NCBI GenBank assembly: GCA_002633005.1
Contig: NMRA01000071.1
Span: forward strand, 92,976 to 156,975
Length of the DNA stretch: 64,000 bases
Reading direction: 5' to 3'
DNA from: Phoronis australis
Lineage: Eukaryota > Animalia > Phoronida
In this document: one piece after another, positions 20,177 to 49,789 of the stretch
Numbering within the stretch: position 1 is the stretch's first letter
Layout of the letters: every line of letters starts with the position of its first letter
Notes under the pieces: model-generated
What the model was told of the DNA's origin: nothing
The model's input: only the letters and a program-made list of their open reading frames with translations
Databases searched by the model: none
Translations under genes and position numbers: made by a program

Positions 20177-20177
20177 N

Positions 20178-24608: not shown

Positions 24609-24612
24609 TTAA

Positions 24613-26223: not shown

Positions 26224-26414
26224 TTAAGAGAAGAACTGCTCTCCGTGTAAATACTCTGAATATACGTTTGAATTTATGTATCTATGTATGTATGAGTAGG
26301 CAAAGCCTACGATGTACAATGCAGTAGGATGAAATCTCTAATCCGCATCACATAGGATCTGTAGGTAGTGCTGAATACCTGTCCACCAAAGACCTGATCG
26401 CCGTCTGGCGGCTA

Positions 26415-26505
26415 GCCAATTTCAATATGGTGTTAGCTATTTCAATATGGTGTTAGCTATTTCAATATGGTGTTAGCTATTTCAATATGGTGTTAGCTAT
26501 TTCAA
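26415..26505. repeat. 20-bp minisatellite, ~4.5 copies
   Basis: atttcaatatggtgttagct. Confidence 0.9.
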
Positions 26506-26726
26506 AAGTCAGCTATTGATGGGCATAAGAGAGCAGGTTCTGGTGAAAACATGCAGATTGTCTACACAATGAGGGATGCAGATTGTCTACACAATGAGGG
26601 TCAGTGAAAAACATGCATTTACTTGGACTCAACTGATAATACAAGACACTTGGAGAAAACAGGAGACAGAACATCTAACAAATGAAGACATGCTATACAC
26701 ATGCCAGTACATACTACACGCTTTAC

Positions 26727-26789
26727 CCCTTTAGCAGATGGCAGTTTCACTTGACCTCCAGTCTTTTCACACAAGTAATGGAACAAGTT
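26727..26789 (-). CDS. unc-13: unc-13 exon: NLFHYLCEKTGGQVKLPSAKG, 63 nt
   Basis: gtttcag acceptor, GGG|gtaaag donor; phase 0-0. Confidence 0.92.
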
Positions 26790-26906
26790 CTGAAACAACA
26801 CATATTGTCACCTATAGATGGTGCTGAAGCAGCTTATAAATCTATATTACTCACTATGTGAGTGTAAGAGTATGGACCAAGCCAATATTCACGAGATAAT
26901 ACCTAC

Positions 26907-28205
26907 AACAAGAGCAACGCAGAACAATGAAATGCATCCGAAAATGCACAGCAAACGGTGTGCTTCTATAGGTGTTTATTTGTACCAAAAATGGCCACTA
27001 GATGGTGCAAAATATGTTGAATCCATTAGAAAACGGGAACATGCCATCGCTTTTTTGATAGAAAGATATTTATCAAATTTCATCAAAATCTGTCAAGGAA
27101 ATTCAGAGAAACAAGGGAAAAAGGAAAAAAATGAAATTGCCACCAGGGCACAGCGTTCGGCGGACCCGAAAGTCATTGTCGTTTGTTGTCAACTTCAGAT
27201 CAATACATTTACTAAATTTAATAAAGATACTGCAGTGGGCTTAGAAGACAGTGTTAAGGTTACGAAACAAAACAAAACAAAACTGCCACTAAGAGGCGCC
27301 AGTCACATTAAATACACTTGCAAAATTTAGTAAAGATCCTACAGAGTGTTTAGGAGATACAGCCATGGGAGAAAAGAAAATGCCCTAGGAGGCGCCACAG
27401 TAGTCGAAGTTGTCGGAAATTCATCGTCGGCCGTCCTCTTCATAGTAAGAACATAGCCGCCAATTTTCACGATATCATCCTTAGGGCAGTTCAATTGATA
27501 GAGGCGCAGACACCAAAAAACAGACTCAAAACAGTAAAAATGGCCATTAGGTGGCACAAAATACCTCGAATCCATCAGAAAACGGGAGGATAGGACCATC
27601 TCACTAATAGATGGCTATATGCCAAAAGTCATCGCCATCCATTGTCAACCTCATAGGAATAAACTGGCGAAATTAAGTAAAGATCCTGCAGCATTTAGGA
27701 GATACAGCCATGGGCGCAAAAAAAACAAAACTGCCACTAGTCAGAGAGGATGCGCCACAGTAGTCGAAGTCGTCGGAAAATCATTGTCAGCCGTCCTCTT
27801 CATAGTAAATACATGCCAATTTTCAAAATCATCCTTAGAGCGGTTTGGTCGATAGAGGGGCAGACACCAAAAAACTCGAGAACAATAGAATGGCCACTAG
27901 ATGGCGCAAAATTCCTCGAATCTATCCGAAAAACAGAAGGATAGCTTTGCCTCACCAAGAGATGCCTATATGCCAAATTTTATGAAAAACCATTGAGGAC
28001 CTTTGAAGATACAGCGGTAAAAGTAAATAACTTTTTTGCCACTAGGGGGCACACTGGTAGTCGCATCTGTCTGAAAGTTCGCTCATAGCGTCCAATACAT
28101 GAAAGGAACTCATGTGCAGGCTTGTGTTTTGAATATATGCCGGACGGATGCCGGACGGGGATGATCGCACATTATGTCCACATAAAAATATGTGGACGCA
28201 TCAAA
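26907..28205 (+). mobile_element. Helentron/HINE-like repeat with an internally inverted segment (~27330-27600)
   Basis: acaagag start, gccactag modules, cggacgga tail, 3' hairpin gtccaca-taaaaata-tgtggac followed by an A-run; internal module order is rearranged and the inversion is not firmly resolved. Confidence 0.55.
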
Positions 28206-28784
28206 ATATAACAAAATATTATCTCCATTTCGGCTAAAGCCTATAAACCAAGGGATGCGCATTAATAATTGGTGCATGATCAGGACAAGCTGGACTACAA
28301 AGCATAATACTTACAATGAATAGACACGGGTGTAGGGACAAACATTTGGCAAAGTACTTACAATGAATAGACATGGGTGTAGGGATAAACATTTGTCAAA
28401 GTACTTACAATAGCTAGGCTAGGCGTAGCAAGAATTATCATGTAGCACGACTACATGCTCAGTGCACCAATTTAGTGCCTTTGTTTGAGTAGCTTGTGTA
28501 AACGTTTATTGTACATGGTAGGCTGTCATAATCACTTAAACTCCACAAAGATGAGTACAGTAGTATAGACCAGACATGCATGTGTACGTACCTCGTGTAA
28601 ACACGTATATTGCACATGGTAGAGTGCCGTAATCACTTGATCTTAAAGTCCACAAAAAGACATGCATGTGTACGTACCTCGTGTAAACACGTATATTGCA
28701 CATGGTAGGGTGCCATAATCACTTGATCTTAAACTCCATGAAGATGAGTACAGTAGTATAGACCAGACATACATGTGTACGTAC

Positions 28785-28900
28785 CTCGTGTAAACACGTA
28801 TATTGCACATGGTAGGGTGCCACTTTCTCTTCACCCTTAATCTCCACACTAATGTGTAATCGAATAGCACCAGATACAGCAGACTTGTCAGTTCTTTTTT
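28785..28900 (-). CDS. unc-13: unc-13 exon: (E)[38 protein letters not shown], 116 nt
   Basis: ttttgtag acceptor, GAG|gtacgt donor; near-identical to the Munc13 consensus. Confidence 0.96.
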
Positions 28901-30427
28901 CTACAAAAAGACAAACCACCATCACTCCATTTTATATTCAAATTGTTTCACTTATAATACATAGAGTCCCTCAACTTAAACAAATGAGTTTGGCTCATGT
29001 AAAATTTTAATACTACTTGGAAATAAAAGAGCCAGAACCTTTATGTACAACATAATTTATGTCAAGTGGACAAAACCAAGGTCACGACAAGTAAGAATCA
29101 TAGCTGAGATTATTGGTGTTTTAGCTGATGAAGTACACAGTTAAGCAATGAAATATTATTTTAAAAAACAACAGACAAAAAGATACATAGGACACAAGAC
29201 CCATTTATCAAAGAAAAATTAACATATTATCACAATGTTCAATCATACACATGACAATATAATACACAACAATACAATATAATACAATGTAACACAATAC
29301 AATATAATACAATGTAACACAATAATACAATACAATCAGATACAATTCCTACATCTTAGATTCAATTCTGCTAAGTGACTAGTTTTCAATATTTACACAG
29401 CTGAGAAAAAAACATAGTCCTGAGCCAATTTAGACACGGGCAACTGATGAATGAATTTAACAACTTATCAAAGCATATTAAACATTAAAAAACAGGGTAA
29501 AAACTTGGGTGGGTTAATAAACATAAGTCTTGAGGCTGTGAATGCATTAACAGTATTTGAAAGAAACACACTACAAATGTTTTGTGTCACAACAATGAAA
29601 CTGATAGGGACACTGCAGGGTCACACAAGCCACCAACAAGGTTGCTATTTGAAATACAGGTTCATAACCATCAACATAATAAATAGACGGAACATGGTAA
29701 AATGAGCAGTGAGAAATAAAGGTCACTTTAGGTTAAAGCCCTCATCAACATAATATATACATATATATAGCCTCATTAACATAACATATCAAACATGGTC
29801 TATATAAACAGTAAGCAACAAGGTCACTAAACTCTCATCAATTTGGGACAATATGGCAGACATGAGAATTTTTATTTTCTCGTGTTTTTCATAAATGACA
29901 CGTAGCATCAAATTGGTGCTTGAAGTTAGTTACTGTCAGTAGCTCCCAACAAAAATATGAAAATGTGAGGAAATCCAGAGCAATGCCTTGAAAAATGAAC
30001 AAGATCACATAAGGTCAGTGACCTGCGCCCACAATGCATCACAAAAGATGTTTCTGAGGGTAACTAGAAGGTGCTATAATAGTAGTTGAATCCTCTCGAA
30101 AATCACATAATGCCAGAGCATTGTCTTCATGTATCCCATAATGCCTAATAAGGGCATTGTCTTCATATATCTCTGAGTCAAGTTTTATTCAGCTCATTCA
30201 CTTCACAAGATATTCACAAAATTAATGCTATTCCACCAAACAATACCTGAAAAGCTCCTTACAAAGAACAAAATAGTGCTGCCACATGGTCATCATACAC
30301 CAAATGATATGTAAAGTTTGGTTAAAATCCGTCAACCGATTCCATAGATACCATCCATGAACACTCTTCATCTAACAAAACTTGACAAGCTCATTATCAT
30401 GTTGATGCAGTGGCAAATCCAGCCTAA

Positions 30428-30630
30428 AAGCGATGGGCGTGGCAGATTGTCATCGCATGGCTGTGTCAAGCGATGGGCGTGGCAGATTGTCATCGCATGG
30501 CTGTGTCAAGCGATGGGCGTGGCAGATTGTCATCACATGGCTGTGTCAAGCGATGGGCCTGGCAGATTGTCATCACATGGCTGTGTCAAGCGATGGGCGT
30601 AGCAGATTGTCATCACATGGCTGTGTCAAG
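30428..30630. repeat. 40-bp minisatellite, 5 copies
   Basis: cgatgggcgtggcagattgtcatcgcatggctgtgtcaag. Confidence 0.92.
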
Positions 30631-31744
30631 TTTTGTTGACATTTGGAATTACTCTTCTACCAAACAACACATGAAAACCAAAGGAGGTGAGCACTACATA
30701 CCAGTAAATCCACCCAAAATATTGATGGTGATGGCGCATTGTCATCACATTCCTGTTTTATTTGTTTAATTTCAATAAAATGTGACAATCGGTTCTCCAG
30801 ATATCATCCGGAAATGATCTTTCCCAAAATTGCCACCAGGAGGTGCTTCAATAGTCAAATCCAACTGAAAATTAAATAATACCAGCGCACGGACATCATA
30901 TACGTCTGTGTCAAGTTAACCGAAATCCATCAGTCCGTTCCCTTGATATCATCTGGAAACACTCAAACAACACTTGAAAACCACCTGCAGAGAACAAAAC
31001 CCCAAGGAGCTGCAATGGTCAAATCAATGCGAAAATTTAAAAGTGTTGGCGCATTCACATTATACACCTGTTCCTCTAGTTTTACTGAAGTCCGTCAATC
31101 GGTTCTCTAGACATCATCCAAAAGCTCTTCCCCAAAATCGCCACTATGAGGTACTCCACGGTTAAATCCACCAAAAATTCAAATTGTGCTGGCATTATCA
31201 CCATATGCCACTGAGTAAGGCTTCATTGATATCCAATAATCGGTTATCTAGACATCATCTGGAAACATTCTTCCCCCCAACCAATACTTGCAAAAACCCT
31301 TCTCAAGAAAAAAGGCCACTAGTTGCAGTAGCAGTTGAATCAGCCGAGCAGAGCATTGATATCTCATACCTATACGTCAAGTTTCTTTAAATTCGTCAAT
31401 AGGATCTCTAGATCTCAAACAGAAATGCTTTACCCCACACTTTGCACCAGGAGGTGCTACAGTAGTATGATTGAAAATAAAATGGTGTCGGCGGATTGAT
31501 ATCATATATCTCAGCATCAACTTTCAACAAAATCCATCTACTGGTTCTTTAGCTATCATCCAGACACCCTCTTCCCCAAACAACACTAGATAAGCCAATT
31601 TCCAAAACAAAAAAGAGCCACTAGAAGGTGATACAATGATCAAATCCACCCAAAAATTAGAAGGTGCTACCGCACTGTCATTACAAACCTGTGTGTCAAC
31701 TTTTATTGAAATCCTTCACTGGGTTCTTTACATATCACCGAGAG

Positions 31745-31920
31745 GAGGCAGTGTGGCCTAGAGTGATAGGTGTCAGTTTTCTTTACATGAGGTCATGGGT
31801 TTAGAGTCCCACCAGGTTACACTGCTAAACCCGTGAGTCAAATTTCTAGCTCCTCAGCTTGGTTTTTACTAAATATTGATGAAGCATAAAAATGGTTCCA
31901 GGTGATCAGTGCAAAAGGTC
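31745..31920 (+). mobile_element. possible tRNA-derived SINE remnant
   Basis: A-box-like tggcctagagtga and B-box-like gggtttagagtccc at tRNA-like spacing. Confidence 0.4.
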
Positions 31921-33213
31921 CACATGCATGGCCAGCGCATGTCTGGTAAATGTTTATCAGACCGCCTGCAATTATTTTATTACATATCACTTGGAAACAC
32001 TGTCACACAAAATGGCCACTAGGATGCACTGCAAATGTCGAATACTGTCAGTTGAAAATCGAAAGATGCCAGTGCATCATTATCTCTGTGTCAAGCTCTT
32101 GTTGATAAAAAAATAGCCACTAGGTGGTACTGCAGTGGTCAAATCAGCCCGAAAACTTAATGGTGTCAGTGCATTAATATCAAACACCTTTGAGTCAAGT
32201 TTCACTGAAATCCTGCTGTTCACCAGGGGTCAGGGCAGACTGAGAAAAAAGGTGTGAACCATTCTAGACTAGTGATGCATTACACCCTTGTGCCAAATTT
32301 TATCAAAATTCGACCAGGGGTTTTTGAGATATCAAGCGGACATCCAGACAATCTGACACAAAGATGACAATATGCGACCACATTGTGGGCGCACAAAAAT
32401 ATGCAATTTTGTTGATTATTTTTGTCCAAAATTGATAAGGTTTTATGGTAGGCACTAACATCATGTTAGGTTCATATACTATACCAAACAGTAACTGACC
32501 TAAATGAGGAATGATTAGCGACAATTATGGAGAGATGACAAATAACAAAAACTCAACAACAACTACATTGTCTGGTAATCAACTAAACACAATAATTCAT
32601 GCTTCGCTGAAAATGCTAACAAAAGCAGAAACCTTAAGGTAGTTGTCAACCTTCATGAAGTACTCAGTTCAGGTCTTTTTAGAATAACTTTTTAAATTCC
32701 ATATTCAACCCACAACAGTTTATGCTGTCTTTCTGAATTCTAAATGACAGATTCAAGCCTTACAACAATCTAAAATAATCATTTTTCTTATTGAGACTAT
32801 GTACAATACAGAATTCCAGTTAAGTAATGAAAATATGAAGTGAACGCCCCCTTTTGGAACCAGAGAACTGAACTCACACACTTGATTCACCACCGGGTAT
32901 GACCTTTGTTGTTGTAGAATAAAACAAAAAAAACAGTACTGTAGATTCCCTAATCTAGGGGGAAAGCTCGTAACAGATCTGCAGGTAGCTCAAGTCCCGG
33001 ATCTCTGTTAAGACTAGGTCTGTGGACTTGGATCTCAGTTGCTTCTCGTACCCTGCACTTCCACTTCTCTGGGTGTATACTCAGTATATTGAAGTCCTCA
33101 ACAGAGATCAAGTGAAATGGACAGCAGTAATCAGCCTAAGGTTTGGGTTAGTGTGATCGCTAACCCTGGTTGATAACTGATGATCCATCTCACTGATATA
33201 CTTGTCAGTACAC

Positions 33214-33390
33214 TCACAGCACACTTGTATTCATTGGTAGATCACAGCACACTTGTATTCATTGGTAGATCACAGCACACTTGTATTCATTGGTAGATCA
33301 CAGCACACTTGTATTCATTGGTAGATCACAGCACACTTGTATTCATTGGTAGATCACAGCACACTTGTATTCATTGGTAGATCACAGCAC
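33214..33390. repeat. 29-bp minisatellite, 6 copies
   Basis: tcacagcacacttgtattcattggtaga. Confidence 0.92.
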
Positions 33391-34159
33391 GCTTCTCGAG
33401 GGCGGTGACATATCTTTCACTGATGGGAGGATGGACTGAATAGTGCTAAACAGTCCACCCTCTAATCAAGTGGTAAATCAAGTGCCTGAGATACGGACAA
33501 AATGGCTGTAGACATATCAAGGTACAGTGTTTTGGTTCCAAAAGGAATCTTCACTTAATATTTCCATTTTTATTACTTTGGTTATGAGTGTTATTTTATG
33601 CCCTGCATGTAAACTGCTAAAACATTAACATAGATTGGGAGATATACCTGTGATTCATGGGAATTGACTCATGTAGTACAAAGAATTTGATGTTTACGGT
33701 TATGTTGGGCACTATAAAAATGGCCAAATTTGGCGACCAACATATCTCTGACTGGATTCATATGAAACTTTTGAATACGATTTATGCAATATTCCCACAA
33801 ATACTGTTAGGAAATATTGTTTAAACAATGAGGAGCTACCAAAAACAGAAATTTTAGAAAACTGCAACAGCATTTTTGATGTCTCACCTAGAACATACAT
33901 ATTGAGAAAAATTGATCTGTGATGTGATTGATACCATTGATTCGCTATTAATGCATCTTAAGTTTGGTTTTGCAAAATTTTACTAAAAAGACATGATCAC
34001 ATGACCCAATCAGTTTGATTAAAAGTCAAAAATCAATTTCCGCAGATTTCCGCAGCATTTCTACTTTCAAAAAATATAAATTGATACCGAGTTAAAATAT
34101 ATACTTTTCTATATATTTTGTTGAATGCATACTAGTTGATAAGGTCTTACATAACCTCA

Positions 34160-35720
34160 TAACCTGAGCAAAGTGGAGCGTTGAAATGTGCCCACGAATG
34201 CTGGAGTAAACGGTGTGCTTCTAGGGGTGTTTATTTGTATCTTAAAAATGGCCACTGGATGGCGCGAAATACATTGAATGTATCCAAAAACTGGTATGTC
34301 ATCTAACCTATTTACCAAATCTGTCAAAGAACTTCTGAGAAATCAAGGAAAATGGAAAAAATGAAATTGCCACTTTTGAGTAAAGACTATGGTTGCAAAA
34401 CAAAACAAAACTGGCGCCACAGAAGATGAAGTTGTCAGAAAATCATCATCAACCGTCCTCTTCACACCAAGAACACATATGCCAATTTTCACAATCATCG
34501 TTAGAGTGGTTTTGTTGATAGAGAGGAGAATGCCAAGAATACAACTAGAAAATAGTAAAAATGGCCACTAGATGGCGCAAAATACGACGAATCCATCCTA
34601 AAATAGGAAATGTCATCATTTCAATAGGAAGCTATTTATCAAATTGCATAAAAATCCATCAAGCTTCAGAGAAACAGAGGAAAACCGAAAAAAAATTAAA
34701 TTGCCACTAGGGTGGGGCGCACAGTGTTAGACAGATCTGTCTGAAAGTCGTCGTTGTTCGTTGTAAACTTCATACAAATAGAATTGCTTAATTAATAAAG
34801 ATCCTGCACAGGCTTTAGGACATACAGCCATGCGCATAAAAAACAAAACTGCCACTATGAGGCACCACAGTAGACGAGGTTATCGGAAAATCATCGTCAG
34901 CCCTCCTCTTCACATTAGGAACATACACGCCAATTTCCACAATCGTGAAAATTGGTTTGGTTGACAGAGGACATGCCAAAAAATAGAGTCCATTTGGTAA
35001 AAATGGCCATTAGGTGGGTCAAAACCCCTCAAATGAAACTGAAAACCAGAGGACACCATAATCTTACTAATAGATGCCTATCTTTCAAATTTTATGAAAA
35101 TCCGTTGAGGACATTTGAAGATACAGAGGTAAACGTTAAAAATTTAAATTGCGACTAGGGAGCATACCAGCAGTCCGATTTGTCTGAAAGTCGTCGTCGT
35201 CCGTTCTCAACTTCATATAAATACAGTAGCAAAATTTAATAAGATCCTGTAGACTGTTAAGAAGATAGAGCCATGGGCGCAAAAACAAACAAAACTGCCA
35301 CTAGGAGGCGCCACAGGAGTCAAAGCCATTGGAAAATCATCCTAAGCTGCCCTCTTCTCCGAAAGAACATAACATATTATATGCCAATTTCATAATCATC
35401 CTTAGAGCTGTTTGGTTGGTAGAAGGGCAGCCGACAAAAAAGCAGAATCAAAATGTCCATCAGGTGGCGCAAAGTAACTTGAATCCATCCAAAAACGTGA
35501 TAATCGCGTCATCTCACTAATAAATGCCTAATTGCCAAATTTTATGAAAATCCCATAAGGATCTCCGAAGATACAGAGGTAAACATAAAAAAATAAAACT
35601 GACACAAGGGGGCACACCGGTAGTGGGAGAAATCCGAAATTCGCAGTCATCCATCGTCAGCCTCATAGCAAAACATCTGCCAAATCTCATCTAGATCCTG
35701 TGAGGGGTTTAGGAGATGCA
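34160..35720 (+). mobile_element. Helentron/HINE-like repeat copy with tandem internal modules
   Basis: homologous to 9893-10895 and 26907-28205. Confidence 0.6.
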
Positions 35721-36654
35721 GCTGGCTAATAAAGGCTTCACACATAATTCAAAATTACTTGAAGTCTCCTCTAACAACTGGAAAATTGGTTGGTCTGGAA
35801 CGACTGGCATATTAAGTCTCATGACTGCTGTAAAACTAAAATTATGAAGCCTGAATAAACCTTGTCAACTAAATTATTGTATAATATAAGCACTATTATT
35901 CATTATTAGGATAATTTTATTCTAAGTTACAGGCAGACCTTATAAAATCTTGGTAACAATAAGGCCTACCTGTGCCTACCTTACAACCTACATTGTCAAC
36001 CATGAGCAGCAACACTGACAAATGTTTATTTACATCACAATAGAATTTTGCTCGGTAACAAGAATTTCTCAATTAAAGAGTCAGCCTGAATTGTATTACT
36101 CACCAGTAATCTCATTTTAGCCAGAACAGGAATGATTACCAAAAGAGAAGAAGGCTTTTCAAACTTGGAATTCAATGTTAGAAAAGGTGGCTGACCCAAA
36201 AAGGTTTTTCAGTGTTTATACAAGCCTCTGTAGTGTGCCTTAGTTGATGTTTTTCAAGAACACAGAGCAGTGGCCAGTAAGGACAAAAGGGAGACAATTC
36301 CTAACAGAGCATTGGCCAGTAAAAAGGGAGACAATTCCTAACAGTGGCCAGTATGGAAGGAAGCTTTGAGAAAGAATAACAATGGTGATGTAGCAATAAA
36401 TCTGACCAAACTTAGTCAAATTTATCGAAATGCTGAATTTAAAGCCATGGTGTGGGTATCAATGAAAACATTTTATACAATACATGAGAACTGCTTTTTT
36501 CTATAAAACTTCCAGGAAGGTTGACAATTACCTGCACACTTAATTACACAAAACGAAAAAATGTCCAAAACAAACAGAAGGTGCTAAAAGAGAGCTTGAG
36601 GCAACAATTGGTTACTCTATGTTACAGTAGACAGACCTGGACTACTAAACTGAC

Positions 36655-36785
36655 CTAGATTGTACCAGACATCCATCTCCCCAGACAAAGTACGGACCTC
36701 AATCGTTGTTTGACCCAGGAAGTCATCCGATTCCCTTGATGTGAACCTTGACCTTAGTCGCGACCTGAGGTCATCGTCTTCATCC
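36655..36785 (-). CDS. unc-13: unc-13 alternative exon 2b, C2B loop 3: [43 protein letters not shown] (131 nt)
   Basis: tttcatctag acceptor, TAG|gtcagt donor; phase 2-1; one codon longer than 2a; many synonymous differences in the shared 3' half. Confidence 0.92.
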
Positions 36786-36833
36786 CTAGATGAAACCATT
36801 TTAATCTCAAAGCACATTATTGATAATACCCAC

Positions 36834-36961
36834 CTAGGTTATACCAGACGTCCATCTCACCACTCAGCGTGCGCACCTCAATAATCGTCTGACCAAGGAA
36901 ATCATCCGATTCTGGGGTGAACTTTTTACGCAAAAATGACTTAATGTCATTATCTTCATCC
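36834..36961 (-). CDS. unc-13: unc-13 alternative exon 2a, C2B loop 3: [42 protein letters not shown] (128 nt)
   Basis: tatgtag acceptor, TAG|gtgggt donor; phase 2-1. Confidence 0.92.
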
Positions 36962-38407
36962 CTACATACAACCAAATATAACCAAAGGTTTAATGGTGCA
37001 ACATAAAGCAATCACCATAATCTACCTTGCCACTAGTCAGTAGACTCATCCAGTCCATTTTGGGCTTGGAGGGGCTAACTAGTCATTGCTGCTGATGGTT
37101 GTAAATCATGGACTTGATGCAACAGCAAAAAGTATTTTGAAACTGACATGCAAGGTCAGTGAAAGTAGTTCTTTGTGAACTCTGCTCTTAGTCATACAAC
37201 CGTCCCAGTTGGACAGTGTAACTAAATACAGATTAACAAAGAGTTTATGGTGTTGGCTAAGACGATTGTTGTTTTATTGCCCCTATGGGTTTTGAATAGC
37301 TGAGCCCACCCGAAATGGACTCCATATTGTCTGCTATTCAATTTTAACAGTGGTCACAAGGTGTCATGTGGTCAACAAAAAACAGCAGCCCCTCACAACA
37401 ACAAGAACAAAAATGAAAACTTAATAATAATAAAAATTGAAAACAAAAGAATTGAAAAGGAAGTTAATTGTTCTTGACAATCTGTTAATTCACAAAATTC
37501 ACAGTTCAATACTGTATAATTACGTCATGTGTTCGAGTGGTTATAAACCTGCCTTGCAATAATAAAACATTGATTTATACCTGACTCATGTTATGAAATT
37601 GGTCAAAAGAATTTCTTTCGCCAAATTGGATGAGATTCAGGGCTTGCAACAGTTTGCTAAATGCAGGTTTACAAAACAGTTGAGTAGTCACTGCATTATG
37701 CAACAAACATACTCTTACATTATAGTGATCTATCAGTTCTTTGCAACAAATATAGCCTAATATAATAGTGATCTATCAGTTATTTGCAAGTGGATAAGGA
37801 ACAAGTAGAGACCAACTTAATGATAACCACAAGTGCACTAACTCATAAGTTCACTCGATGGACGATATGTGAGAGTGTTGCCGCTTTAAAACAATTTCAG
37901 TCACTGCCATCGTGTTTCTATCAGACTGAAATGTCCAAAATCAGACGGAACAGACGGAAGTCTCACAATTTTTGGGGGAATAGACTTTATGAATTCTGAA
38001 GTCATCACCAATTTTGAAACGAATTTCGGGGGAATTATTTCTGACTTGGATACTCCCTGTGGTGACTTCGTGGTGACTTGGGATCTTTCCCTGGTTACCA
38101 GACACAATCTGAAGTTGCCTTGATGAGTTGCAGCTCATCAAATGGAGCACAGAAGAATGAAAATGTTTAATGTCTATCATACAAGTGCTTGCTTTAAAGA
38201 AAAACTTGAAAATGTTGTGTATCAAGTTTTAGTTAAAATGTTGTCTCTCAACGTTCAACTTCAAAGCAGATTAAAGCAAACAAAAGAGAAACCAAAGAAC
38301 GGACAGAAACTGCTTTAAATAAAAGAACAGAAAAACATCAAGAACTTGAAATTGATCCGAGTGATACTTGTACTCAAATGTGAAACACTTGCAAACATCT
38401 CCATACA

Positions 38408-38525
38408 GAAACAGTCAGTCCTACTCTTGGATTGACAAACAGTCAGTCCTACTCTTGGATTGACAAACAGTCAGTCCTAATCTTGGATTGACAAATAGTC
38501 AGTCCTAATCTTGGATTGACAAACG
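38408..38525. repeat. 28-bp minisatellite, 4 copies
   Basis: aaacagtcagtcctactcttggattgac. Confidence 0.9.
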
Positions 38526-38809
38526 ATTCTCAAGATTTCCCACAACATTCAATCCCACAATCCCTCACAAACAACCCATTAAGCACATACTAATCTCCCA
38601 TCTTAACACTGAACATAATTATGTAATTTACCAGCTTGTTTCAAATTGTGCTCTTTTAAAAAAGCACAATGCTGTGGAGCATGATAAATTTCCCCCACCT
38701 GACAGCGTCAATTCCACAAACATTGAAGATCCACCCAAACAGTGGAGGAGCCTAGGTTCTTTGAGCTGAAGTCAGCACAACAAAACCTGGTGAGATTCTT
38801 TCCCCTCGC

Positions 38810-39357
38810 AATTCATTAGTCTCATCTATTCATTAGTCTCATCAATTCATTAGTCTTATCTATTCATTAGTCTTATCTATTCATTAGTCTCATCCATTCA
38901 TTAGTCTCATCTATTCATTAGTCTTATCTATTCATTAGTCTTATCTATTCATTAGTCTTATCTATTCATTAGTCTCATCCATTCATTAGTCTCATCCATT
39001 CATTAGTCTTATCTATTCATTAGTCTTATCTATTCATTAGTCTCATCCATTCATTAGTCTCATCTATTCATTAGTCTTATCTATTCATTAGTCTCATCCA
39101 TTCATTAGTCTCATCCATTCATTAGTCTTATCTATTCATTAGTCTCATCCATTCATTAGTCTCATCAATTCATTAGTCTTATCTATTCATTAGTCTCATC
39201 CATTCATTAGTCTCATCTATTCATTAGTCTTATCTATTCATTAGTCTCATCAATTCATTAGTCTTATCTATTCATTAGTCTTATCTATTCATTAGTCTCA
39301 TCCATTTATTAGTCTCATCCATTCATTAGTCTTATCCATTCATTAGTCTCATCAATT
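38810..39357. repeat. 17-bp minisatellite, ~32 copies
   Basis: attcattagtct(c/t)atc(t/c). Confidence 0.95.
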
Positions 39358-39754
39358 CCAAAGCTGTTGATATCCCACAATGCTAAGCCACGTTAGTACA
39401 TTTTTATTAATCGGCCATTCATTGACTAATCATGAACGGGGACACCAATATGCATATGCACCGGTGCTTAAGATACATCTGATTGGTTGTACCACGTGCT
39501 CTAGACTACTTCTGTCATTAATCAAATTTATCTGCCCAAACTTCACCCCGACAAATTCAAAGGTAACTTTCAACTAATTTTTAGAAAAATACCGAGGCAT
39601 ACTCAAAATTTGTAATACTTCTACGACAGGACATAACGACTTTTAGAGCCCTAAAAGTACAAAGAATATGTCAGGTTAATTGGAGACTGTTGGCAACTTT
39701 CTAATTGTATTATCAAACTAAAGTTGTTTTGAAATGACGGATATCAGCACTTAC

Positions 39755-39796
39755 CACACCCTCACTTTAATTCGGTCGGAAGAATTATGGCACTCA
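39755..39796 (-). CDS. unc-13: unc-13 exon, C2B: ECHNSSDRIKVRV(W), 42 nt
   Basis: tttttag acceptor, TG|gtaagt donor; matches the Munc13 consensus. Confidence 0.95.
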
Positions 39797-39804
39797 CTAA
39801 AAAT

Positions 39805-40190
39805 AAAGAAAATAGAATGAGCAGTTGTATCTGTGTCAGATGGTTAGACAGTGACAGGGACTAGACAGACAAATAGAATAGTTATAATATCTGTTAGATG
39901 GTTACAGTGATAGGAAAAGACAAATAGAATAGTTATAATATCTGTTAGATGGTTACAGTGACAGGAAAAGACAAATAGAATAGTTATAATATCTGTTAGA
40001 TGGTTACAGTGACATGAAAAGACAAATAGAATAGTTATAATATCTGTTAGATGGTTACAGTGACAGGAAAAGACAAATAGAATAGTTATAATATCTGTTA
40101 GATGGTTACAGTGACAGGAAAAGACAAATAGAATAGTTATAATATCTGTTAGATGGTTACAGTGACAGGAAAAGACAAATAGAATGAACA
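39805..40190. repeat. 51-bp minisatellite immediately upstream of the 42-nt exon acceptor
   Basis: gacaaatagaatagttataatatctgttagatggttacagtgacaggaaaa, ~7 copies. Confidence 0.92.
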
Positions 40191-40431
40191 GTTACCTTTT
40201 GTTTACTGAAGCTGGGAAAGTTGACACTCGCATCAACAATGCTATCACATTGGAAGACATAAGAAAACTTGAAATGACATTACCTGACACATGTGGCCAG
40301 TAGGAGTATTGCAATTATATGTTTAAAGTGACATTACCATACACATCTAGAATGTATCACTGAAAATAAGGGTTCAGGTCATGCGACACTGAATTAATCT
40401 AGCAAATGGCCTCATGACAATCAATACTTAC

Positions 40432-40573
40432 AAGTAGAATGTTTCATCCCACACTGGGTTCAGGTCCTGTGGCACTGTCTTGGTCTGTTTCTTTGTCTTG
40501 CCCACCTGTACTGTCACATAGGGGTCACTAGTGCCAGTCTTGTCTTTTCCAATAAGACCCTGAGCACATATAA
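40432..40573 (-). CDS. unc-13: unc-13 exon, C2B: (V)[46 protein letters not shown](F), 142 nt
   Basis: gttgtag acceptor, TT|gtaagt donor; C2 SDPYV and LNPVW motifs. Confidence 0.96.
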
Positions 40574-40929
40574 CTACAACGGAACCAAACATATAGTTAG
40601 AAACACATGGTAAAACACCATGATTATATATCCACTCATGAAAGGTAAGCCCTACTTCAACTTAATAAAGTATGAAGCACGGCAAGATCATTGCCCACGT
40701 TTATCCTAAGGTATGTTTTGTGGAGATGCAAGAAGTCAGTGAAGAGATCACAGACTGGGGCCTACCGCAAATATGAACGGGAGTTAGAGATCTACATGGT
40801 TGACTGAAAACAAGCAAAAGAACATAAGAAGTATGTCATTGAGAAATATATTTTGAATATTTATCACAACAGTCTGAGAAAAGACAAGTTGTGAATAAGT
40901 CAAACGATAACACCAAAATTAGCTATGAA

Positions 40930-42278
40930 CCTGTTTCTTTTTATTCAACAGTGTTCCACATTGCATCCTCAATGGCCTCTGTTCTTTATTCAGCACAATA
41001 TTCTACACTACACCCTCTGTGACCACCAACATGACAGACTACACCTGTTCTTTATTCAGCACAGTATTCTACACTACACTCTGTGACCTCCAGCATGACT
41101 GACTACACCTGTTCTTTATTCAGCACAATATTCTACACTACACCCTCTGTGACCTCCAACATGACAGACTACACATGTTCATTATTCAGCACAATATTCT
41201 TCACTACTCCCTCTGTGACCTCCAACATGACAGACTACACCTGTTCTTTATTCAGCACAGTATTCTACACTACACCCTTTGTGACCTCCAACATGACTGA
41301 TTACACCTGTTCTTTATTCAGCACAGTATTCTACACTACACCCTCTGTGACCTCCAACATGACTGATTACACCTGGGGCCCGTTCCAAGAAACTGACTTA
41401 AGTTCATTATTGACTTAAGTCTAAGATTTGTCTTAACTTCCAAACTTTGAAACTTCCATATCTGGTAAATTTATCAAAATTAAGCCAAAACGTACGTCAA
41501 ACACTTAAATCAAGCTTAATATCTCTTTCTTGAAATGATTTTGAGACAAATTGAACTTTTATTTTAAAATTTAGTAAAATTTAGGAATTGTCTTAGCTAA
41601 GTCAGTTTTGTTGGAACGGGCCCCTGTTCTTTATTCAGCACAATATTCTACACTACACCCTCTGTGACCTCCAGCATGACTGACTAGAACCTGTTCTTTA
41701 TTCAACACAGTATTCTACACTACACCCTCTGTGACCTCCAACATGACTGACTACACCTGCTCTTTATTCAACACAGTATTCCACATTACACCCTCTGTGA
41801 CCTCCGACATGACTGACTACACCTGTACTTTATTCAACACAGTATTCCACGCTAAACCCTCAATGACCTCCAACATGACCGACTACACCTGTTCTTTATT
41901 CAGCACAGTATTCTTCACTACACCCTCTGTGACCTCCAACATGACTGATTACACCTGTTCATTACTCAGCACAATATTCTTCACTACACCCTCTGTGACC
42001 TCCAACATGACTGATTACACCTGTTCTTTATTCAGAACAATATTCTACACTAAACCCTGTGACCTCCAAAATGACTGACTACACCTGTTCTTTATTCAAC
42101 ACAGTATTCCACACTAAACCCTCAATGACATCCAACATGACTGACTACACCTGTACTTTATTGAACACAGTATTCCACACTAAACCCTCAATGACATCCA
42201 ACATGACTGACTACACCTGTACTTTATTAAACACAGTATTCCACACTAAACCCTCTGTGACCTCCAACATGTCTACAC
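40930..42278. repeat. 66-bp minisatellite, interrupted by a Harbinger MITE
   Basis: ctgttctttattcagcacaatattctacactacaccctctgtgacctccaacatgacagactacac. Confidence 0.93.
41376..41623. mobile_element. PIF/Harbinger MITE, 248 bp
   Basis: CTG|GGGCCCGTTCCAAGAAACTGACTTA...TAAGTCAGTTTTGTTGGAACGGGCCC|CTG; neighbouring repeat units show the empty site. Confidence 0.88.
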
Positions 42279-42279
42279 C

Positions 42280-42590
42280 TGAGATTCCTCTACATGTTAC
42301 CATACTTCAGATAGCCATTGGTGAGATCTATGTAAATATTACCAAATGCCAGATAGTCATTGATGAGATAAATCTAAATGTTACCATACTTCAGATAGCC
42401 ATTTCTGAGATACATTTACATTGAATACCATACTTCGAATGGATATCATTGATTAGATCTGTTTACATAATAACAAACTTCAAATAGCCATTGATGAGAT
42501 CTATCTAAATGCTACCATACTTCAGATAGCCATTGATGAATAGATATTACCATCCTTTAGACATCCATTGACAAGAACTATCTACATAAA
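42280..42590. repeat. degenerate ~45-bp minisatellite
   Basis: accatacttcagatagccattgatgagatctat variants. Confidence 0.75.
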
Positions 42591-42762
42591 AGTTCACAAA
42601 GATATACAACTGTGCAGCTACGGTTGTCTGAATTTTGGAGCTTAAAACCAGATACAAGCTGTGTATTGATTTCACTTTGATCAAATGAAAAATCCAACCT
42701 TGGGCAACTATAAAAACGAACAATAAAAAAACTTCAAAATAAAACTGTTACAATAGACTTGG

Positions 42763-42838
42763 AGAAATTTCATTTTATCAAGTAACAATGATGACAGTAT
42801 TTTCTGTCATCATTGCTACTTGATAAAATGAAATTTCT
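42763..42838. repeat. near-perfect inverted repeat, 35-bp arms with 6-nt loop
   Basis: agaaatttcattttatcaagtaacaatgatgacag-tatttt-ctgtcatcattgctacttgataaaatgaaatttct. Confidence 0.92.
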
Positions 42839-43019
42839 AAGTCAAGAATGGCTGTCTAGTGAAGTTGAGAATAGTGGATTGGGGTGAGCTCATCAGTCTG
42901 ACCCTCAAGCAAGAATCAAATAAAACATATTTGGAGGCTGGCAATAAGATCCCACTGAAACCTTGACTGTAACTTAGACTGGTCAAAGGTAAATCAGTTC
43001 TACATCTTTTGGGGGCGAA

Positions 43020-43190
43020 AATTGCCACACGACAGGCATTCATTGCCACACGACAGGCATTCATTGCCAGATGACAGGCATTCATTGCCAAATGACAGGC
43101 ATTCATTGCCACACGACAGGCATTCATTGCCAGATGACAGGCATTCATTGCCACACGACAGGCATTCATTGCCAAATGACAGGCATTCTT
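43020..43190. repeat. 21-bp minisatellite, 8 copies
   Basis: attgccacacgacaggcattc. Confidence 0.92.
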
Positions 43191-43394
43191 AGACACTTTC
43201 AAGAATATCACACCGTGTCAGTAATTGGGGTTCAGCATAAAGGTAAGTGCAAGTAGTTAAAAGGAAAAAGCAAATTTGGGAGATGAACATTATGAAGTAG
43301 GCTAATAGATATGCAAAAGATATCAAGTTAGTGTTAAACTGATAGGTAGCACATCATAAAGGAAAAGCTAGAACAAAATTGGGTTTGCGGCCAA

Positions 43395-43990
43395 TAGACT
43401 ACCCTTGGTGACACTAGCGACACATTATAAAACTGTTACAAGAAGACTACCCCTGGTGAGACTAGTCACATTATAAACTGTTACAAGAAGACTACCCCTG
43501 GTAACACCAGTCACATCATAAACTGTTACAAGAAGACTACCCCTGGTGACACTAGTCACATTATAAACTGTTACAAGAACACTACCCCTGGTGACACTAG
43601 TCGCATTATAAAACTGTTACAAGAAGACTACCCCTGGTAACACCAGTCACATTATAAACTGTTACAAGAAGACTACCCCTGGTGACACTAGTCACATTAT
43701 AAAACTGTCACAAGAACACTACCCCTGGTGACACTAGTCACATTATAAAACTGTTACAAGAACACTACCCCTGGTGACACTAGTCACATTATAAACTGTT
43801 ACAAGAACACTACCCCTGGTGACACTAGTCACATTATAAAACTGTCACAAGAACACTACCCCTGGTGACACTAGTCACATTATAAAACTGTTACAAGAAC
43901 ACTAACCCTGGTGACACTAGTCGCATTATAAAACTGTTGCAAGAAGACTACCCCTGGTGACACTAGTCGCACATTATAAAACTGTTACAC
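43395..43990. repeat. 46-47-bp minisatellite, ~13 copies
   Basis: actacccctggtgacactagtcacattataaaactgttacaagaag. Confidence 0.93.
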
Positions 43991-44559
43991 AATGTAAAGC
44001 TAACACAACTATCTTACCCTCTTGAGTGTAAATTTTGGAGCATTTTATCAAAATTTATTATTTGGTTCAAAAAGTTTAATATCTGCGACCGGCTGTAAAC
44101 GCAGCTTGCGTAGGGAACAGCAGATTAGCAGTTTTGAGGTGCAAGTTGAACCATGGCAACAATAGCTTTTGTACAAGCAGTAGTTGACATTTAAAACAGG
44201 TATGTGCACAACACAGACTAAATGTGACAAAGGCAATGATCTAATCCCAACATTCAGCCTCAACATTTGGAACTTAACTATTAATTTAAATGATTCAACA
44301 ACAAAATTCGTTAACTTTACTGTGGCAGATGGTCAATTGTTTAGTTGAGTTCCAAGTAAAGAGATTAGACCACTGAGTCCAAATTTTAATGACAGTGGCT
44401 GTGAGCGATACATTTTCAAAAGCACAGTGACAATATCAACAACACAACAACATTGACAAGAACCATGAAAGTAAAAACCATAAACTAGATATCTGAAACT
44501 GCAAAATAAAACTTAAACACAAATGTGCAACATAACAGTGACTGCTGCAACCTGCACGA

Positions 44560-45200
44560 TGATGAGCGTTGGTCAGTATTGGTGACTGGAGAGACATGGA
44601 CATGCAGGATAGTGAATGTTGGTCAGTATTGGTGACTAGAGAGACATGGACATGCAGGATAGTGAATGTTGGTCAGTATTGGTGACTAGAGACATGGACA
44701 TGCAGGATAGTGAATGTTGGTCAGTATTGGTGAGTAGAGACATGGACATGCAGGATAGTGAATGTTGGTCAGTATTGGTGACTAGAGACATGGACATGCA
44801 GGATAGTGAATGTTGGTCAGTATTGGTGACTAGAAACATGGACATGCAGGATAGTGAATGTTGGTCAGTATTGGTGAGTAGAGACAGGGGGCTATACAAT
44901 GGTGAGTGTTGTTCAGTATTGGTGACTAGAGAGACAAGGGGCAATAGATACAATGGCGAATGTTGGTCAATACTGGTGACTAAGAGACAGAAGCCTGTGT
45001 ATAATGGAGAGTGTTATTCAGTATTGGTGACTAGATAGGCAGGGACCTGTATAATGGTGAGCGTTGGTAAGCAATGGTCAATAGAGGCAGGGCCTGTATA
45101 ATGGTGAGTGTTATTCAGTATTGGTGATTAGAGGCAGGGGGGCTGTACAATCTTATGGTGAATGATGGTCAGTATTGGTGACTAGACAGACAGAATGGTG
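44560..45200. repeat. ~51-bp minisatellite with a degeneration gradient
   Basis: gttggtcagtattggtgactagagacatggacatgcaggatagtgaat. Confidence 0.9.
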
Positions 45201-45910
45201 CCTGCATAGTGAGTCTTGGCTAGTGGTCAGAAAATGTATGACTGAAAAGAGACAAGGACAATAATGCAGACCACAGAAATGGAGAGTAATGATGACCAGA
45301 CCAGATATATGAACAGTGCGTGCTGGTAACCAGAGACAATGACAGTACTGGTGAATAGTGATAAGGACAGTACCAATGACCAGACCAGACATATGAACAG
45401 TACTGTTGACCCCATGTATGGTCAGTACTGTTTAACCAGGATATGGTCAGTACTGGTGACCACTTGTATGGACAGAACTGGTGACCACAGATACGGACAA
45501 CTCTAGTGCCCAGTGAGACAAGGTAAGTACTGGAGACAGGAGTACAGGTCACTACAACACTAATGGAGAACAACAGCAACTTATGTATATAGTCTGTCTT
45601 CTGCAAAATTGATTAATTCTAGTTAGTAATACTGTACCTCAACCATGGCGCTGCAAAATGTTTGAAGTCGAACATGCGAGAACACAAACAACGTGAATGA
45701 GAGGAAGGGTTCATAAGAGGTTCAATGTAAAAGGCGTTAGTAATACAACATGGAAACTAAGTTTAACATGTCTTTGGTCTTGTTAATAAATGTTAACTGA
45801 AAGTACAAAATATAAAAAAATGAGTTTCAACTACACAACAGTCATCATTCTCTATACTTAGGCTGACCGCCACCAGAGGGCGAGCATGCTCCAACACCAG
45901 GTGTCACTAC

Positions 45911-46017
45911 CTGTGATGGCTATTTTTGCCGACCATTTTGATGTGCCATCCAGTATCATCTGCTTGGCTTGCTCCATGTCTGTTTTATGTTGATTGCCAT
46001 CGACATGGAATGTCTCT
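45911..46017 (-). CDS. unc-13: unc-13 alternative exon 1b: ETFHVDGNQHKTDMEQAKQMILDGTSKWSAKIAIT (107 nt)
   Basis: tattgcag acceptor, CAG|gtagtg donor; canonical LDGTSKWSAKI start of C2B. Confidence 0.92.
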
Positions 46018-46066
46018 CTGCAATAGTCATGTGATAGTCATGTGATATGCAAGTGACTCAACTGAC

Positions 46067-46173
46067 CTGTTATCTTAAGTTTGGCAGACCACTTGGATGT
46101 GTTCTCAATAACGGCAGCATGCAGGGTGTTCATTGAAGAAGAATGCACTTTGTTCAGCACATGAAACAACTGC
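46067..46173 (-). CDS. unc-13: unc-13 alternative exon 1a: QLFHVLNKVHSSSMNTLHAAVIENTSKWSAKLKIT (107 nt)
   Basis: ttttgtactgcag acceptor, CAG|gtcagt donor; open frame, same length and phase (2-1) as 45911-46017, shares TSKWSAK. Confidence 0.85.
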
Positions 46174-46231
46174 CTGCAGTACAAAACAACATAACTTGAA
46201 ACTTATCATCAACCAAGTAAATCTAGCCAAA

Positions 46232-46625
46232 TCATAGACTATATAGATAGGGACTAGTATCTATGGTCATATATAGACTATATAGATAGGGACTAGTATC
46301 TATAGTCATATATAGACTATATAGATAGGGACTAGTATCTATGATCATATATAGACTATATAGATAGGGACTAGTATCTATGATCATATATAGACTATAT
46401 AGATAGGGACTAGTATCTATGGTCATATATAGACTATATAGATAGGGACTAGTATCTATGGTCATATATAGACTATATAGATAGGGACTAGTATCTATGA
46501 TCATATATAGACTATATAGATAGGGACTAGTATCTATGGTCATATATAGACTATATAGATAGGGACTAGTATCTATGGTCATATATAGACTATATAGATA
46601 GGGACTAGTATCTATGGTCATATAA
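46232..46625. repeat. 42-bp minisatellite, ~9 copies, ~60 bp upstream of alternative exon 1a
   Basis: atagactatatagatagggactagtatctatggtcatat. Confidence 0.93.
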
Positions 46626-47355
46626 GGTATGAAGTGGTTCACCATTTATTAACATATAAACCTTGACATATGCTATTCCATAAAAATTCAACATACTACA
46701 ATGCTGAATGCCCCAATAATAACTCCGCATAACAATGAAACATGGTTATGTTTAAACCATGGCCACTATGAAATGACATTTTGACACTCACGTTTTGAAG
46801 TCAGACCCCACGATTGAAAATGTCTTAGCAAAATCCAACTCCCAATAGCAGAAAATCACTTCAGACAAGCAGACATACAGTGGATATGTGTACATATAGC
46901 TGCAATTGCATATTTTCACTACACACCATCTCTGCCCAGTTCAACTCATTAGCCACATGATCCTCTCGCAAGGACCAAATACAGACTCTCCCTTTCACTA
47001 CATTCTTATGGTGATCACGCTGATATACATTTGGTGGGCACATATCAAGTTGTGCCACTGAGTTGCTTAGGCAAGTTACACAATAGCCTTATTCCAACCT
47101 CTGGCACATAGTTGACTTCATGCAAGCCCAAAATATGTCTTTGTAATAAAGCTTTTGACAATTGATATCCGCACCTGGAAAATCACATGACTTGAATGGC
47201 CTGATAGGTGGCGCTTCAGTGCTGTGCATTTACCAGAGCAGTGGGACACTGAGATTATAAATGAGTAACTGTTAACTAGCGGACAACAACATGGAAATAA
47301 AATAAAGTTGCATCCAAATGGAGAACAGCTTTTCTAGTGTATAGAATGTAAGAAT

Positions 47356-48943
47356 TGACCTATCGCAAACTCCACCCCTTTACTAAAAGTCACGTGACAC
47401 CTGAAAAACAAATAAGATGTCGGAGGCAAGAATACTGTCGCTAACAGCCCCCCCCCCAATGGAATCGATGCATGTTTTTGGACTATACGAAAATGCTTCG
47501 ACAAAGAAAACAGACGATGCTTTTCAGCATAGAATTATATGTTCAAGATCTGAGAACTTGCAAAGATGACGATGAAAAAATAAGTGTTCGAGGAAAAGTA
47601 TTTCGCAGTCAGCAAAAATCCAAAGAACCCCACAGGGTTCAACTTCATTTGACAAATTCACAGATATTATTATTTTGCTGCCTGTTATATTCCGCAAAAT
47701 GGAAAGTAGGTCACAAGATGAGACTCCCCGATTAAAGTAGGTCGAGTGGATAGCACTGTTTATGCTTTTCGAATCTTCAATCGAAATATTTTGAATAAAA
47801 AATCAAGTTCATAGCCTAGGTACGCACTCATCTTGTCCTATGCAAGCAGTTAGCTCCCGTAGGTCTAGGGCTGTGTCCAAGTCAAATTCATACAAATGGA
47901 ATTGGTCGTAATTGCACCATTAAAACATTTAAGTTAGGTCAACCGTGATGAAATACACATTTTGTAGTTTCATTGCATGAAGGTAGCTTTCAGTTAATTT
48001 AAAATATAGCACCATCACTAAGTTGCGGTATGGTTACAAAAGATGAGAAGTCTGGTGTAGTAGCAGAAAATGGCTATTTTAAGTACAAATAACTTAAATT
48101 CTTTTTTAAAGCTTCATAATCCAAGTGTCATGTTCGACAACCTACAAAACTGAGTTCTCTTAACTCTACAGGCGAAGTGTAAACGAGAAGTTCTCAGCAA
48201 AAGTATTTATTTTTTCATTTAAACAGCTCGAGCTTTGAGTTCAGTAATCCAGTGCCCCTCCTGTTCCGATCGAATCTGTCAATTTTGGAGAGAAGTTCAG
48301 TTGAACACCAGCCTAACGTATATGAATAAAAAAGTATCTCATTTTTGGAATGAAACAAACCAAAACAATGTCCATTCGGACAAAATAAATGTGAAATAAT
48401 ACAAATGTCCTTAAAAACACAATTTCTGGGGACTACTGCTTGGACTAGTGCTGGGATCCAGCAGGTGCCGAGACATAGGTAGCCAAATGAGTGAAACTCC
48501 GCAGTCAAAGTCAGAGATAGGCTTACACTGTAGCCATCAATCTGAAAATTACGCATCTTGGAACAAATACATTTCGTGTTTAACCTTCGATTAATTAAGT
48601 AACATTGCCAAGTTCAGTTGCTCTTGTGGCCATCCACAAAGTTTGATTCATCGTTTACACCATTCAACAGCATATTTCACCATAGAAAATTCTCATAAAA
48701 TGATGGGATATTCTTCTCAAGCTGTACAACGACTGAAGGAATTAAAAACGCCATAAGCAACACCGTTTCACTATTCTTATCACAGAATTTCCTGAGCTAT
48801 AGACTACAATAAGCTTTACCAGACAACCTGCTGTTTGTCGGGTAAAATGGCCTCTTGGAAACGGAGAAAAAGAGGTGTCAAGAATGAATGCTGCATTCTG
48901 ATTGGTCAGTTAAGCCATCAGTCAAAATCCTGGTAATAGGTCA
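47356..48943. mobile_element. ISL2EU-like DNA transposon remnant
   Basis: AT|TGACCTAT...ATAGGTCA|AT; ORF 47472-47735 (VRGKVFRSQQKSKEPHRV) resembles the N-terminal part of SWIM/YqaJ-type ORFs carried by such elements (from recall). Confidence 0.55.
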
Positions 48944-49035
48944 ATTGTTGAGCAAGGCATCACGACAAAGAACACAGAATAGAGTGTCAAACTTCTTGTT
49001 TGGAATTGCTTAGAAATAAGAACACTAAAACTCAC

Positions 49036-49156
49036 TTGATTAACTCAAAAATCTCAGGTTTGTTTCTTTCCCTGATTTTCATCCTATCCTTCATGGCCAT
49101 GATGATGTTCTGAGTTTTGTCCTGTGCTCCGTGTTTAGAGCTCTTCTCTGCTGCTC
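49036..49156 (-). CDS. unc-13: unc-13 exon, C1-C2B linker (R)[39 protein letters not shown](K), 121 nt
   Basis: ttaccag acceptor, AA|gtgagt donor; phases 1 and 2 match neighbours. Confidence 0.95.
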
Positions 49157-49789
49157 CTGGTAACAACATACAACTGTTAACATACAACTGGAAACTGAGT
49201 TTTGTCCTGCGCTCCATATTTAGAGCTCTTCTCTGCTGCTCCTGTTAACAACTTACAACTGTCAACATACAACTGGCAACTAAATACTTAACAAAAAATA
49301 GAACTGAGAGCAAGTTACAATCAAAATGCTTCATATCATGTAACATAAGACTAGGTACGTATTTCAATAAACTGTATCATACTAGATACCTAAAACTTGT
49401 CAATTTTGGTTTTGAATTATTGTCTGATAGAACCAGAGTGGAAAATTTGATTAAAAAATTGTATACATAGAAAGTTGTAGCCAGTTTTCCCGTGTTATGA
49501 CATTTTGCTTAATATTTTTTCCTAAAGAGAATGTTAAAATGTGTCAAGTTTATGGATGAATTGTCAAGAGTGGGTCTCCGCATCATGCTGCAGTAAGCAA
49601 TACAAGTCACCGATAGTCATCCATTTTTCTGAAAGAGGTCACTGTGGGCTATTTCTGTGTGCTAGATTATTTCGGGGTTATGGGCATTTGTGAAAGAGAC
49701 CTGATCGGGCTCTTTCAGAAATCCTTTGTATACTGTGAAAAGTAGTAGTTGAACGTGCCTGCATTATTTTGTAGTCAAGATATACTCAC

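Follow-up and report, generated by a model that had tools for sequence, protein, structure and literature searches.

The unc-13 gene of Phoronis australis contains two tandem exons, designated A and B, that encode alternative versions of loop 3 of the C2B domain. Both lie in the window, the stretch of 64,000 nucleotides of contig NMRA01000071.1 that was analyzed here. A and B are very probably a real, expressed and old pair of mutually exclusive exons, with little doubt attached to the exclusivity. The whole explanation, namely an old mutually exclusive loop-3 pair whose isoforms would differ in membrane binding, is likely.

The loop-3 exon pair and its transcripts

Segments encoding C1, C2B, and MUN occur in order in the window and are 68-86% identical to named orthologues over shared columns, identifying the gene as a neuronal-type Unc-13/Munc13. 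The nearest protein is that of Lineus (86% over 586 columns). In a FastTree tree, the window protein grouped with annelids, a nemertean, and a brachiopod with a local support of 93, below the starred level; the same tree places Owenia wrongly, among molluscs. The features surrounding the pair are as follows.

875..60668, minus strand: unc-13 exons (C1, C2B, MUN) located by tblastn with public Unc-13 proteins; neither end of the gene is complete
39755..39796, minus strand: constitutive upstream C2B exon, 42 nt; RNA loose-end consensus equal to 39756-39785
36834..36961, minus strand: exon A, C2B loop 3 variant (K768, P772 type), 128 nt, phase 2-1; spliced in RNA to 39755 and 28900
36786..36833, minus strand: spacer intron between A and B, 48 nt; RNA depth of 0 in bin 36800-36819 for each of the four runs
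36655..36785, minus strand: exon B, C2B loop 3 variant (S768, one inserted residue), 131 nt, phase 2-1; RNA depth 2-4 in runs X1 and X2
28785..28900, minus strand: constitutive downstream C2B exon, 116 nt; RNA loose-end consensus equal to 28871-28900

Both exons are preceded by AG and followed by GT, start in phase 2, end in phase 1, and are open in a shared frame. The preliminary description of this DNA had reported tandem exons of 128 and 131 nt, in phase 2-1 and with GT-AG borders, separated by 48 nt and flanked by splice sites at 39755 and 28900; this arrangement was confirmed, position for position, on the minus strand. Both peptides match the C2B domain of rat Munc13-1 (E value of 8.8e-18 for exon B against PDB 6nyc). 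Joined in silico to their neighbors, A alone or B alone gave an open C2B domain, inclusion of both led to a stop ten codons into B, and skipping of both placed a TGA directly at the junction. Neither tblastn nor a motif scan covering 39754-28901 in all three minus-strand frames detected a third loop-3 copy.

At the DNA level, A and B are 73% identical (94/128). Synonymous sites are saturated (pS of 0.79), and pN is 0.14 for the whole exon, with 0.26 in the loop half (first 17 codons) and 0.06 in the 3' half. The earlier claims that the 3' halves are almost identical in protein but diverged at silent sites, in keeping with an old duplication, and that the differences concentrate in loop 3 are borne out by these values. 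Since pS is saturated and pN is low, the pair is neither a recent duplication nor an assembly stutter. The window does have recent duplications that copy exon ends, as might be expected if A and B were themselves an assembly artefact or a recent local duplication of a type frequent in this repeat-rich genome. However, that origin is refuted by the DNA identity, the saturation of silent sites, reads that are 99% alike for A and for B, and the presence of the pair in other species, and its probability is negligible.

Repeats are present elsewhere in the gene. An 85-nt tandem duplication at 49270-49101 (minus strand; 71/85 identical) comprises the acceptor and the start of exon 49156, and splicing at the upstream copy of this acceptor would reach a stop. 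A tandem repeat at 28572-28874 duplicates the 3' end of exon 28900-28785, with its donor, within the intron. An array of about 4.4 kb with a 27-nt unit, at about 15725-20204 within unc-13, is open in two frames.

Transcription was assessed with three raw RNA runs (X1-X3, 18-19% of each run sampled, tissue unspecified) and a contig set (X4), all matching the species label. Reads were aligned to two 600-nt stretches, so that splice junctions appear as loose ends, which were listed only if carried by at least 3 reads. Positions 36500-37099 attracted 25 reads (8 from X1, 16 from X2, and 1 from X3) and one X4 contig, and all 25 reads were oriented as expected for a minus-strand transcript. The 3' loose ends of A (4 reads in X1 and 4 in X2) correspond to the start of exon 28900; A therefore skips B. 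The 5' loose ends of A (8 reads in X2) correspond to the end of exon 39755. In the X4 contig, the final 30 nt of B are joined to exon 28900; at 5 places these 30 nt differ from their counterpart in A. Depth in boundary bins suggests that 2 reads per boundary in X1 and 1 in X2 end at the limits of B, below the listing threshold of 3. Three of the four junctions proposed in the preliminary description were read, two for A (39755->36961 and 36834->28900) and the downstream junction of B (36655->28900), and the upstream junction of B (39755->36785) is suggested by depth only.

Both exons are thus present in RNA, rather than one of them only. An A-B joint was not seen among the 25 reads and the depth of the spacer was 0; routine double inclusion is therefore not apparent, at a low power and with the proviso that decay would hide it. 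All 8 X1 reads continue for at least 20 letters that do not match the stretch. They are not A-B reads because a 151-nt A-B read could not run 20 or more letters off the stretch. Two X2 reads extend unspliced from B into the downstream intron (36580-36655).

Exclusivity had been attributed to the short spacer together with the frameshift caused by double inclusion. The frameshift was upheld by the stop found in the A+B joint; the short spacer does not hold as a general mechanism, spacers in relatives measuring 78-1575 nt. For the two spacers found in the window (48 nt here and 49 nt in a second pair described below), a distance of less than 50 nt between donor and branch point follows necessarily, 50 nt being the steric-exclusion limit used in the accessible text of PMC5740500; the shortest other unc-13 intron measured in the window is 115 nt. 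Spacers too short to be spliced may therefore aid exclusion in the window. Frameshift plus decay, or splicing regulators, are needed in the relatives because their spacers are long, and double inclusion would lead by frameshift to nonsense-mediated decay in all lineages. No consistent signal for pairing between docking-site and selector RNAs was detected in 16 comparisons involving four species (the best value was reached by 1/20 shuffles); for the downstream intron of the window, the scan covered the first 1 kb. The arrangement resembles tandem mutually exclusive exons in general, as outlined in the available part of PMC5740500: homologues of the same phase, a frameshift on joint inclusion and, in the window, a distance under 50 nt.

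Loop-3 exons in other animals

Of the 120 entries listed from a search with the exon A protein, nine were long proteins matched twice. Eight public gene models contain two tandem loop-3 copies (Dimorphilus, Mytilus coruscus, three from Macrostomum, Schistosoma margrebowiei, Didymodactylos, and Mya). Retention of both exons in one protein, through cryptic splice sites or read-through, is likely to be an annotation error in these models (P0001-P0008), so that at least 8 public models can be flagged as wrongly holding both. A Microcebus model (P0009) was rejected as a vertebrate counterpart, its partial repeat being larger and spanning several exons.

A scan of metagenomes confirmed 172 relatives. 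Among the best 80 of these 172 loci, 13 have two loop-3 copies, 14 have one separate exon along with both flanks, in 29 the segment is fused with an adjacent exon, and 24 are undecided. The 13 two-copy loci represent at most seven distinct taxa, and all boundaries checked in them are canonical except the second acceptor of L009. The 128+131 arrangement of the window is common to L006/8/10/11, L019, and L066/69, which represent three other species with spacers of 170-173, 159, and 78 nt, respectively. Comparison of orthologous exons in four species gave pS of 0.56-0.95 and pN of 0.03-0.16, and both copies are under purifying selection. The pair can be lost, because the 14 loci with both flanks and a single separate copy exist.

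The second copy of L009 (L009:1383-1510) has a shifted start and two residues changed relative to near-identical loci; it looks damaged, as an assembly error or a damaged allele.

In four further sets of loci (L026/29, L039, L070, and L076), canonical tandem copies are separated by 332-1575 nt, and one copy has diverged and lost acidic positions. Exons devoid of several acidic ligand positions, with intact splice sites, are found at L026:959-1084, L029:2335-2460, L039:1109-1234, L070:2191-2316, and L076:960-1091, and are candidates for encoding Ca2+-insensitive C2B isoforms. Two close unc-13 forms were also observed, one with the S768-type exon only (L042-L064 group) and one with a diverged first copy in addition (L039/L070/L076).

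Either-or isoforms occur among automatic RefSeq models. The following counts are those of the cluster members listed (at most 15 per cluster).

Lingula: 10 and 3
Crassostrea angulata: 3 and 2
Mytilus trossulus: 5 and 2
Mya: 9 and 3
Dreissena: 9 and 5
Mercenaria: 5 and 3
Ruditapes: 4 and 2
Mizuhopecten: 10 and 3

Among cluster members listed, a single variant was seen in the 21 echinoderm and hemichordate proteins, in all gastropod and cephalopod proteins, and in several other bivalves, these absences being weak. The second copy is thus not confined to the window: tandem copies exist in bivalves, an annelid, flatworms, and a rotifer, and alternative isoforms in a brachiopod too.

One exon of the pair might be a redundant or minor copy without a distinct function, as B has fewer reads than A, some loci have a single copy, and the second copy of L009 appears damaged. 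We regard this as very improbable, given the strong purifying selection on both copies, with silent sites saturated, and the retention of type-specific residues across species.

The history of the duplication was approached with an exon tree of 42 columns, in which 28 of the 42 inner branches are open and from which the first copy of L076, two residues longer, was left out. Exon A groups with the first exons of L006, L019, and L066 and with bivalve second exons (SH-aLRT of 92), and exon B is placed with S768-bearing exons such as that of Lamellibrachia. The duplication would be at least as old as the split between annelid-like and flatworm lineages. One ancestral cluster of three exons, followed by different losses, fits the exon order; no three-copy locus was found among the loci surveyed. 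Alternatively, the pairs of different phyla could stem from several independent duplications and convergent substitutions, with no single ancestral event. The poor resolution of the exon tree leaves room for such a history, as does the grouping of exon A with second exons of bivalves, position and type not being simply matched, and pairs of C2 exons arose repeatedly in other genes according to the accessible text of PMC2823689. It is nevertheless unlikely, if still a serious contender, because four species share both the 128+131 lengths and the inserted serine, R763 and S768 recur in the second copies of an annelid and of flatworms, and loss from an ancestral three-exon cluster would account for the exon order.

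Residues exchanged and predicted consequences

Residues are numbered with the first aspartate as D757, so that the rat sequence has an arginine at 769. This anchoring agrees with the D757/D759 ligands and with the location of R769 in a Ca2+-binding loop, as given in the available portions of PMC3888931 and PMC8648301, respectively. Relative to rat, R765 is replaced by F in A and is R in B, Q768 is replaced by K and S, R769 is K and R, and R772 is replaced by P in A versus an inserted S together with R772 in B. The acidic positions (D757, D759, and neighbors) are kept in both exons of the window, as the preliminary description had stated. Basic residues within 762-772 number 4 in A versus 5 in B, and 4/2, 4/3, and 3/3 in orthologous pairs. 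Neither the charge difference nor F765 is conserved in these pairs; what is conserved instead is the shape of the helix end, with K768 and P772 in one type versus S768, the inserted serine, and R/H772 in the other. The direction of any functional effect is unpredictable because basic counts vary among orthologous pairs. For residues 761-770, the hydrophobic moment of A (0.49) exceeds that of B (0.23), the helix of A being the more amphipathic.

Loop 3 contributes three of the five Ca2+-binding aspartates, and the unliganded C2B domain is inhibitory in Caenorhabditis elegans (PMC6779330). In the accessible text of PMC8648301, rat Munc13-1 with the substitution R769E is impaired in liposome binding and in priming, and the amphipathic helix touches the membrane in both simulated orientations. 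Excerpts of two other studies describe insertion of the loop 3 helix into the bilayer by cryo-tomography (PMC8851502) and a role of Ca2+-phospholipid binding by C2B in setting replenishment and short-term plasticity (PMC8691950). Membrane binding by the A and B isoforms would differ owing to the surface of the helix and its C-terminal end, and we consider it somewhat probable that the choice between A and B alters this binding.

In exon B, S768 stands behind R/K-x-R, which we take to be a kinase motif. The two exons could accordingly be mutually exclusive and yet produce isoforms that differ in autoinhibitory or protein contacts of loop 3, or in a kinase site present only in B. Consistent with such a role, net charge is not among the conserved differences, which involve 768, 772, and the insertion, and S768 occupies the second copy in the window, in L006, L019, L066, L039, L070, and L076, and in Dimorphilus, Schistosoma, and the three Macrostomum genes; the inhibitory effect of unliganded C2B in C. 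elegans points the same way. However, the stretch that varies is the very helix that contacts the membrane, and S768 is also found in the one listed Priapulus protein and in the first copy of L070. These considerations make contacts or phosphorylation a distinctly unlikely basis for the difference, an effect on membrane binding being preferred.

The C2B domain of rat Munc13-1 (PDB 6nyc; mutants R769E, K706E/W, and DN) shares the fold segment, the acidic ligands, and the basic helix with the products of A and B. In contrast to the engineered mutants, the variation described here is natural and switchable, and alternative exons of L026, L039, and L070 lose acidic positions. A and B offer ready-made pairs for liposome and rescue assays.

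A second exon pair in the C1-C2B linker

Tblastn revealed in the same unc-13 gene a second pair of tandem exons, 1a and 1b, which is absent from the preliminary description.

49790..50009, minus strand: C1 domain exon, located by tblastn
49036..49156, minus strand: constitutive exon upstream of the second (linker) pair
46067..46173, minus strand: exon 1a, C1-C2B linker and C2B start, 107 nt, phase 2-1; tblastn, both junctions read
46018..46066, minus strand: spacer intron of the second pair, 49 nt; RNA depth 0 in bin 46031-46050
45911..46017, minus strand: exon 1b, 107 nt, phase 2-1; tblastn, both junctions read
40432..40573, minus strand: constitutive C2B exon with loop 1, downstream of the second (linker) pair

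All four junctions of this pair were read, those of 1a by 5 reads in X2 and 4 in X3 (upstream) and 3 in X1 (downstream), and those of 1b by 5 reads in X1 and 3 in X2 (upstream) and 6 in X1 and 3 in X2 (downstream). No 1a-1b joint was listed among 34 reads and the spacer depth was 0, with low power since listing needs 3 reads. Usage varies by run, X1 containing mostly 1b and X3 only 1a; at 7, 7, and 3 read pairs, the difference is no more than suggestive.

The linker pair is more widespread than the loop-3 pair and occurs in other protostome loci. Among 26 loci with both flanks, the linker exon is present twice in tandem in 5 (L013, L020, L021, L022, and L030) and three times in 1 (L018), and some of the multi-copy loci group with ecdysozoans. 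Alternative linkers were found, among cluster members listed, in Lingula, oyster, mussels, scallop, four gastropod genera, and cuttlefish. In the fly Pseudolycoriella and the millipede Chamberlinius, the single linker resembles the second copy of L021, and in most other animals the linker is closer to the first copy of that locus, a pattern for which differential loss is a possible explanation.

Linkers matter in how C1 and C2B inhibit each other (PMC11991699, accessible part), and the two cassettes together would allow four versions of the C1-C2B regulatory module. We tentatively propose, while judging it somewhat short of even odds, that C1-C2B carries two ancient cassettes in protostomes, the loop-3 cassette in Spiralia, perhaps once with three exons that were lost differently, and the linker cassette shared with ecdysozoans, and that cells combine both to adjust the Ca2+/PIP2 sensitivity of priming, up to Ca2+-blind forms where the alternative exon of a lineage no longer has acidic ligands. 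If so, C1-C2B, treated as the invariant core of Unc-13, is variable, and this would have been overlooked since a duplicated loop-3 exon of its own is absent from the usual models.

The closest precedent is provided by the C2 exon pairs of Syt1 (C. elegans), Syt34, and arthropod Esyt2, likewise duplicated mutually exclusive exons that alter the C2 domain of a trafficking protein (PMC2823689, available text). They belong to another gene family, whereas the exchange here affects loop 3 and the amphipathic helix of the priming factor Unc-13 and is accompanied by a linker pair. N-terminal isoforms of Unc13/Munc13 (alternative promoters in Aplysia; Munc13-1 and ub/bMunc13-2), as presented in the accessible text of PMC9282427, are also derived from one gene and proposed to shape short-term plasticity. 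They differ in C2A and the calmodulin site through promoters, whereas the pairs of the window lie inside C1-C2B and depend on internal exon choice. The two pairs thus add a layer of splicing to Unc13 diversity, otherwise described at the N-terminus only in the available text of the papers cited, and supply natural switchable variants at residues studied by mutants, kept across several phyla, together with a linker switch.

A search of full-text literature, with subscription papers, bioRxiv supplements, and the Kassiopeia database outside its range, returned no paper describing either pair. The accessible text of the Aplysia study (PMC9282427) mentions promoter-derived isoforms only, the searched supplements of two human exon catalogues (PMC8373072 and PMC5740500, in part) gave no match to UNC13, and the available portions of PMC8164606, PMC6025963, and PMC12084633 contain nothing on either pair; an entry for one or the other may exist in a large published table.

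In one of the metagenome loci, a repeat at L029:131-629 copies the end of the linker exon, like the repeat of an exon end at 28572-28874 in the window.
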